The notes under the pieces were generated by a model, which did no database searches, was not told where the DNA came from, and saw only the letters and a list, made by a program, of their open reading frames with translations. The position numbers and the translations under genes were made by a program. A stretch of 64,000 nucleotides of DNA from Escherichia coli O127:H6 str. E2348/69 (lineage in GTDB: Bacteria > Pseudomonadota > Gammaproteobacteria > Enterobacterales > Enterobacteriaceae), in NCBI RefSeq assembly GCF_000026545.1, contig NC_011601.1. The stretch is one strand, 5' to 3'. Below are positions 31,533 to 32,462 of the stretch, piece after piece (within the stretch, counting starts at the first letter, position 1; every line of letters begins with the position of its first letter).

Positions 31533-32462
31533 ATGGCGCGTTACGATCTCGTAGACCGACTCAACACTACTTTTCGCCAGATGGAACAAGAGCTGGCTGC
31601 ATTTGCCGCTCATCTTGAGCAACACAAGCTATTGGTTGCCCGCGTGTTCTCTTTGCCGGAGGTAAAAAAAGAGGATGAGCATAATCCGCTTAATCGTATT
31701 GAGGTAAAACAACATCTCGGCAACGACGCGCAGTCGCTGGCGTTGCGTCATTTCCGCCATTTATTTATTCAACAACAGTCCGAAAATCGCAGCAGCAAGG
31801 CCGCTGTTCGTCTACCTGGCGTGTTGTGTTACCAGGTCGATAACCTTTCGCAAGCAGCGTTGGTCAGTCATATTCAGCACATCAATAAACTCAAGACCAC
31901 GTTCGAGCATATTGTCACGGTTGAATCAGAACTCCCCACCGCGGCACGTTTTGAATGGGTGCATCGTCATTTGCCGGGGCTGATCACCCTTAATGCTTAC
32001 CGCACGCTCACTGTTCTGCACGACCCCGCCACTTTACGTTTTGGCTGGGCCAATAAACATATCATTAAGAATTTGCATCGTGATGAAGTCCTGGCACAGC
32101 TGGAAAAAAGCCTGAAATCACCACGCAGTGTCGCACCGTGGACGCGCGAGGAGTGGCAAAGAAAACTGGAGCGAGAATATCAGGATATCGCTGCCCTGCC
32201 ACAGAACGCGAAGTTAAAAATCAAACGTCCGGTAAAGGTGCAGCCGATTGCCCGCGTCTGGTACAAAGGAGATCAAAAACAAGTACAACACGCCTGCCCT
32301 ACGCCGCTGATTGCACTGATTAATCGGGATAATGGCGCGGGCGTGCCGGACGTTGGTGAGTTGTTAAATTACGATGCCGACAATGTGCAGCACCGTTATA
32401 AACCACAGGCGCAGCCGCTTCGTTTGATCATTCCACGACTGCACCTGTATGTTGCAGATTAA
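31533..32462 (+). CDS. tus: DNA replication terminus site-binding protein Tus
   Basis: ORF 31521..32462; start at internal ATG ([10 protein letters not shown]...), 309 aa; recognised as Tus. Confidence 0.95.

Follow-up and report, generated by a model that had tools for sequence, protein, structure and literature searches.

The tus/fumC and folM/ydgC gene pairs of Escherichia coli O127:H6 E2348/69 each end tail to tail on a single TTAA that holds the stop codons of both genes, and the RNA downstream of the fumC stop codon folds into a hairpin that is encoded inside tus, conserved across the family, better paired on the fumC strand than on the tus strand, and reflected in constraint on the synonymous sites of tus. 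Taken as a whole, these observations are best explained, with a probability of roughly 0.85, by two ordinary and ancient convergent junctions, a fumC hairpin located within tus, and termination of read-through transcription by Rho. The predicted role of the hairpin is probably that of a fumC terminator or of a stabilizer of the fumC 3' end. A family-wide conserved fumC hairpin inside tus is new here, yet its kind is already known; no description of its conservation within tus across the family was found in the searchable literature.

Geometry of the shared stop codons

The window, which is the whole 64,000-nucleotide stretch of DNA that was analyzed, begins at the position corresponding to 1687214 of NZ_LT827011.1. 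It contains tus (31533-32462, + strand; DNA replication terminus site-binding protein, 309 aa) facing fumC (32459-33862, - strand; class II fumarate hydratase, 467 aa), and folM (28250-28972, + strand; dihydromonapterin reductase, 240 aa) facing ydgC (28969-29304, - strand; GlpM-family membrane protein, 111 aa). The tus stop codon is the TAA at 32460-32462 and the fumC stop codon is the TAA complementary to 32459-32461, so that the two strands share the TTAA at 32459-32462 (+ strand context GCA GAT TAA ccc, 32454-32465). In the same way, the TTAA at 28969-28972 contains the folM stop codon (TAA, 28970-28972) and, on the opposite strand, that of ydgC (TAA, complement of 28969-28971; + strand context CTG CGT TAA tgc, 28964-28975). 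Both 4-bp overlaps had been proposed in the sequence-only reading, and both were borne out by the sequence itself, by the open reading frames (31521-32462 and 28250-28972 on the + strand, 32459-33862 and 28969-29304 on the - strand), by the RefSeq annotation, by protein profiles, and by the genome of K-12 MG1655, which has the identical pair of 4-bp overlaps at tus/fumC and folM/ydgC. The last residue of FumC, encoded next to the TTAA at 32462-32464 on the - strand, is glycine (GGT) in this strain versus arginine (CGT) in K-12.

Overlaps of this kind have already been described. [quoted passage not shown] In E. coli there are 58 convergent overlaps of any length (PMC2174442). The two junctions examined here belong to the 4-bp class, with genes on opposite strands, 3' ends facing each other, and one of the permitted tetramers (TTAA), and there is no difference in kind from the class described in 2007; what is added here is the history of these two junctions.

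Analysis of all ten convergent pairs in the window gave distances of +2, -48, +49, +38, +24, -4, -4, +44, +111, and +43 bp. Three of the ten overlap, and tight or overlapping tails are the rule among the convergent pairs of the window. The stop-on-stop geometry by itself is thus no more than chance, and what goes beyond chance is the persistence of the -4 distance across species. As a point of calibration, TTAA stop-on-stop overlaps are routine and give no ground for being flagged as anomalies.

Evolutionary history of the junctions

With Tus as an anchor, 80 enterobacterial loci were fetched, one per species, which together with the window made a set of 81 sequences. The genera included Escherichia, Citrobacter, Salmonella, Enterobacter, Klebsiella, and Raoultella, as well as Kosakonia, Kluyvera, Lelliottia, Pluralibacter, Phytobacter, and others. 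The four stop codons were placed by tblastn followed by in-frame extension. The distance between folM and ydgC was counted in the 41 loci that had both genes within the fetched flank.

The tus and fumC genes were tail to tail in all species but one. The distance between them was -4 in 46 of the 81 sequences (37 with TTAA and 9 with TTAG). A distance of 0 was found in 19 sequences, mostly as TGATTA in Enterobacter and Lelliottia, and one of -11 in 11 sequences of Klebsiella and Raoultella. Rarer distances were -14 (one sequence), +10 (two sequences), and +35 (one sequence, from Pluralibacter gergoviae). The sole species among the 80 others with broken tus/fumC adjacency was Klebsiella indica, in which two genes, encoding proteins of 458 aa (- strand) and 467 aa (+ strand), are inserted between tus and fumC at 6999-10445 of the fetched locus. 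The folM/ydgC junction was more uniform, with a distance of -4 in 40 of the 41 loci (CTAG in 15, TTAA in 13, TTAG in 11, and CTAA in 1) and of -7 in the remaining one.

All four permitted tetramers, and no others, were seen at the -4 junctions, which is what passive constraint predicts. A YTAR junction would be held passively, because only T-to-C exchanges (in either direction) at position 1 and A-to-G exchanges at position 4 keep both stop codons, and because any insertion or deletion would shift the C-termini of both proteins. The C-terminal tail of FumC was found to be variable among genera, and because of this variability the tus/fumC junction moves between -4, 0, and -11. Judged from the comparison of these loci, both junctions are old and stable, without selection for the overlap itself being required.

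Transcript overlap and Rho-dependent termination

Since there is no intergenic DNA at either junction, the 3' untranslated region (UTR) of each gene and its termination signals lie inside the coding sequence of the partner, and with the 3' UTRs inside the partner genes the mRNAs are mutually antisense at their 3' ends. That overlapping convergent genes must have their terminators within the coding sequence of the partner was pointed out in 2007, when Rho-independent terminators were predicted in 23 of 116 such E. coli genes (PMC2174442). Overlap of the convergent transcripts, also proposed from the sequence, follows logically because each mRNA must hold its own stop codon, and agrees with published K-12 data both on the RNA-seq excludome and on Rho. 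The tus-fumC and folM-ydgC pairs are both in the core convergent excludome of MG1655 identified with ExcludonFinder, which consists of 165 convergent pairs whose transcripts overlapped in 50% or more of the 58 RNA-seq data sets examined (PMC12288877, Table 1). Three other pairs from the same window, speG-ynfC, clcB-bidA, and tqsA-pntB, are likewise among the 165 (PMC12288877, Table 1). In the window, speG and ynfC are convergent and only 2 bp apart (4014-4017), and clcB has a 48-bp overlap (13795-13842) with a frameshifted bioD-like pseudogene, called ynfK or bidA in K-12.

In K-12, Rho acting within tus and folM limits read-through from fumC and ydgC, as indicated by the DirectRNA-seq of Adams et al. 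with and without bicyclomycin (PMC7815308). Two Rho regions were reported on the - strand: one at 1684895, which is antisense to tus and has a Rho score of 5.6 (p 5.8e-7), and one at 1681110, which is antisense to folM and has a score of 3.6 (p 2.4e-5; PMC7815308 supplementary file 2). K-12 coordinates were converted to window coordinates with a constant offset of 1,652,726, which placed the first region at 32169 (- strand), approximately 290 nt beyond the fumC stop codon, and the second at 28384 (- strand), approximately 585 nt beyond the ydgC stop codon; both positions are coarse, because the regions were scored in 800-nt windows, and they come from one growth condition in K-12 rather than E2348/69. 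Downstream of tus and folM, the + strand had no reported Rho region (PMC7815308). The ratio of C to G in the first 100 nt beyond the stop codon was 1.5 for tus and 1.72 for folM, and was 0.85-1.5 beyond the fumC stop codon and 0.6-1.3 beyond that of ydgC. Such C-rich, G-poor RNA after the tus and folM stop codons weakly suggests that these transcripts may also end by the action of Rho. Neither the TERMITe nor the Adams tables contained a curated Term-seq 3' end for tus, fumC, folM, or ydgC when searched by name or by coordinate.

The transcript overlap raises the question of whether the junctions are regulatory excludons maintained by selection, in which each gene would repress its partner through polymerase collision or through RNase III cleavage of the RNA duplex, so that, for example, induction of fumC would lower tus. 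Both pairs are themselves named among the 165 overlapping pairs of MG1655 (PMC12288877), the junctions are tight throughout the family, and fumC-sense RNA extends approximately 290 nt into tus. However, transcript overlap is no proof of reciprocal regulation, and membership of a list of 165 convergent pairs is not distinctive. In the strict sense, an excludon is defined by mutually exclusive expression, whereas these two pairs are known for transcript overlap alone. Furthermore, the conservation of the junctions is accounted for by passive constraint, and the drift of the tus/fumC distance among genera (0, -11, +10, and +35) argues against a mechanism that depends on precise geometry. Selected excludons are therefore given a small chance of being the explanation.

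How strong the replication fork trap is depends on the amount of Tus, and oxidative stress and iron limitation are signals to which fumC responds. A functional excludon, in which the antisense overlap and the fumC hairpin together coupled Tus abundance to fumC transcription, would link central metabolism with replication termination, though such coupling is highly doubtful.

A conserved hairpin in the fumC 3' UTR

The sequence-only reading had further held that there was no room for separate terminators. This was correct for the intergenic space but not for the coding sequence of the partner gene, which in the case of tus contains a conserved hairpin belonging to the fumC 3' UTR (32404-32449, - strand). 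RNA folding gave a 5' arm at 32449-32435, a 16-nt loop at 32434-32419, and a 3' arm at 32418-32404. The stem is 15 bp long and its first base is 12 nt beyond the fumC stop codon; a core of 12 bp, in which 32447-32436 pairs with 32417-32406, is found family-wide. The hairpin is encoded antisense to tus codons 292-305, with the arms corresponding to codons 292-295 (QAQP) and 302-305 (RLHL). On its 3' side is a U-rich tail, GGUUUAUAA (32396-32403, - strand), antisense to Y289-K290-P291 of Tus, which in this strain is UGGUUUAU, with 5 U in 8 positions. Across the family (alignment A1, columns 56-64) the tail has the form NGG(U/C)UU, in which the GG is invariant, followed by variable A/G, U/A, and A/G positions. 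The 45-nt hairpin segment had a folding energy of -24.2 kcal/mol in this strain, and the family mean was -24.9 kcal/mol.

In having a GC-rich stem of 12-15 bp a few nucleotides after the stop codon, followed within 3 nt by a U-run, the hairpin resembles a canonical intrinsic terminator. It differs in its loop, which has 16 nt instead of 3-8 nt, and in its U-run, which is just UUU(A)U. When 27500-34500 was scanned with a terminator consensus, neither junction had a canonical terminator, and the number of hits did not rise above that in shuffled sequences (11 vs 8.8); the scan missed the fumC hairpin because it admits only loops of 3-8 nt. A search of Rfam returned just two chance matches, both to eukaryotic snoRNA models with E values of approximately 0.7 and below the gathering scores.

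Nearly all of the 80 other species had the hairpin. Pairing was analyzed with an ungapped alignment of 75 columns (A1), in which the 12 core pairs, read as fumC-sense RNA, were canonical in 96.6% of cells. When the partner columns were slid by 1-3 positions as a control, pairing was 18-48%. Six of the core pairs had two-sided changes, amounting to 24 cells, and this level was reached by 0-1 of 500 column shuffles, a statistic that overstates the significance of the covariation because the species are related. RNAalifold alone found no more of the hairpin than its inner 7 pairs, and the full stem was tested explicitly instead.

The pairing was also biased toward one strand. Canonical pairing fell from 96.6% when the alignment was read as fumC-sense RNA to 85.3% when it was read as tus-sense RNA, and wobble pairs possible on one strand only were found in 41 cells in the fumC sense versus 13 in the tus sense, one invariant U.G pair having been left out of this count. 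That pair fits the strand bias without being evidence for it, because the second positions of the His304 and Ala293 codons fix it. The mean folding energy was -24.9 kcal/mol in the fumC sense versus -19.0 kcal/mol in the tus sense, and in this strain the corresponding values were -24.2 and -15.0 kcal/mol.

The regions downstream of the other three genes were different. The mean z score was -3.4 downstream of fumC versus -1.0 to -1.5 downstream of tus, folM, and ydgC, and a search for conserved structure 3' of these three genes found none (alifold energies of approximately -1 kcal/mol). A structure 3' of ydgC that had appeared in the single sequence (z -1.93) was not upheld by the cross-species comparison.

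In the mechanism that we propose for fumC, the hairpin and the short U-run would stop some polymerases, and/or the hairpin would block 3'-exonucleases after Rho has terminated read-through approximately 300 nt further on. Because tus, folM, and ydgC are without conserved 3' structure, their transcripts would be expected to end diffusely, mainly via Rho acting on untranslated antisense RNA. Dar and Sorek are said to have found in 2018 that Rho-dependent 3' ends are trimmed back to a protective stem-loop. The fumC hairpin is similar in that it lies near the stop codon without a strong U-tract, with a bicyclomycin-sensitive region further downstream. It is different in that it is embedded in the codons of another gene, and that it is known here from sequence.

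A stem-loop situated where two convergent genes meet might instead act on both of them as a bidirectional, collision-type terminator. In the model of Ju et al. 2019, as it is presented in a later preprint, a stem-loop in the overlap region of convergent genes pauses polymerases arriving from both directions (bioRxiv 10.1101/2022.10.23.513370). The fumC hairpin also lies where a convergent pair meets, and its palindrome folds on the + strand as well, with a mean of -19.0 kcal/mol. In the case of tus, however, the hairpin is not downstream of both stop codons: on the + strand, 32404-32449 precedes the tus stop codon (32460-32462) by 13-58 nt and is inside translated sequence, so that + strand transcripts ending there would yield a non-stop tus mRNA. 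The hairpin is thus beyond one stop codon only, and its pairing is strand-biased, being worse on the + strand both across the alignment (85.3% vs 96.6%) and in this strain (-15.0 vs -24.2 kcal/mol). In addition, Rho dependence has been reported downstream of fumC, whereas collision terminators are described as Rho-independent (bioRxiv 10.1101/2022.10.23.513370). Because of its position upstream of the tus stop codon and its poorer pairing on that strand, a collision-type bidirectional terminator is unlikely.

Synonymous constraint in tus

The location of the hairpin within codons makes it necessary to consider whether it arises as a by-product of codon bias and of the conservation of the Tus protein, or whether its action is on tus mRNA or DNA instead of on fumC RNA. 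QAQP and RLHL, the conserved residues encoded by the arms, are specified by preferred codons (CAG, CCG, and CTG), and the invariant U.G pair is dictated by the His304 and Ala293 codons at their second positions, as would be expected of a by-product. The synonymous codons of tus residues 292-305 were resampled for each species according to its own codon usage. The mean fold of the resampled sequences was far weaker than that observed, at -12.7 vs -23.8 kcal/mol for the 81 sequences. In 73 of the 81 sequences the observed fold ranked among the lowest 5% of resamples, and in 52 it ranked among the lowest 1%. Leu303 was encoded by CTG in 73 of 79 species and Pro295 by CCG in 64 of 66, whereas the other leucine and proline codons among the last 56 codons of tus were much more variable, with entropies of approximately 1.6-2.4 bits.

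The exceptions to the strong fold included the only two genomes in which fumC did not abut tus. One of these was P. gergoviae (L048; hairpin p 0.44), which has a 35-nt spacer with a palindrome of its own, and the other was Klebsiella indica (L059; hairpin p 0.16), with its two genes between tus and fumC. In both, synonymous changes in the His-Leu codons, from CAC CTG to CAT TTA, broke the stem at its base. Weak hairpins were also seen in two genomes of Klebsiella/Raoultella that have the -11 overlap (L044 and L057). Comparison of these sequences is suggestive of decay of the hairpin where fumC leaves tus, in a sample of two genomes and with weak hairpins also in L044 and L057.

In other words, a by-product of Tus coding would not be expected to fold so much more strongly than its resampled equivalents (p ≤ 0.05 in 73 of 81), to have Leu and Pro codons so much less variable than those elsewhere in tus, to have wobbles favoring the fumC-sense strand by 41 to 13, to have compensatory changes on both arms, or to lose its stem in the absence of an adjacent fumC although RLHL is retained. 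This origin of the hairpin, or an action on tus itself, is very unlikely.

A hairpin that serves fumC has consequences for how this region is interpreted. It would be an example of dual coding, in which an RNA hairpin of one gene is kept in the synonymous sites of a convergent gene throughout a family, and it bears on the reading of synonymous-site conservation in tus. Recoding or deletion of tus or fumC would also be affected, as a tus deletion takes away the 3' end signal of fumC. The hairpin is relevant as well to those terminator predictors that are blind to coding sequence and to long loops.

Gene identities and sequence accuracy

The gene names given in the sequence-only reading were correct according to RefSeq and the protein profiles. 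Tus matched TIGR02648 (549 bits, 2.8e-165) up to its last-but-one residue, and matched all 296 of the 296 profile positions of Pfam Ter, with the match stopping three residues short of the stop codon. FumC matched TIGR00979 (846 bits, 8.5e-255), with the profile match stopping six residues short of the stop codon. The matches of FolM to NF005066 (414 bits, 2.2e-124, profile positions 3-239 of 239) and of YdgC to Pfam GlpM (1.1e-50, 107 of 107 positions) both ran up to the last residue. The annotated stop codons correspond to native C-termini, as indicated by the profile ends, by the K-12 termini, and by the same termini in most of the 80 other species.

A base-calling error at the junctions, which had been named as something that could overturn the overlaps, or an annotation artefact with one stop codon misplaced, has practically no likelihood, because K-12 MG1655 carries both 4-bp overlaps, the 6.2 kb from 28000 to 34200 is 100% identical in three independent assemblies of E. 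coli O127:H6 E2348/69, the same geometry recurs in dozens of species, and the profile matches end at the last residue (FolM and YdgC), the last-but-one (Tus, TIGR02648), or within three (Tus, Pfam Ter) or six (FumC) residues of the stop codon.

Neighboring features

Several other features in the window were noted. The TerB replication terminus site is at 31500-31522 (+ strand), 10 bp upstream of the tus start, and this site and the autoregulated tus promoter are only 1 kb away from the tus/fumC junction. Relative to TerB of K-12, one base is changed (T7 to G), giving AATAAGgATGTTGTAACTAAAGT. This change is probably tolerated, because TerC and TerG also have G at this position.

The class I fumarase gene at 34005-35651 (- strand) is named 'fumB' by RefSeq in E2348/69, while its syntenic counterpart in K-12, also upstream of fumC, is called fumA, and the label looks like a naming inconsistency of automatic annotation. 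Between this gene and fumC is a perfect GC-rich palindrome, CCGCCCCGAAGGGCGG (33983-33998), which was flagged as terminator-like on the + strand and may be a - strand terminator or attenuator between the two fumarase genes. A 22-bp palindrome, TCATCAGTAGAATACCTGATGA (29333-29354), lies between the divergent starts of ydgC and rstA; it was flagged on both strands and could be a regulator binding site. Farther from the junctions, uidC (38679-39944) carries an internal stop codon and is annotated as a pseudogene, and an IS200C transposase gene (50446-50904) is located between add and ydgJ.
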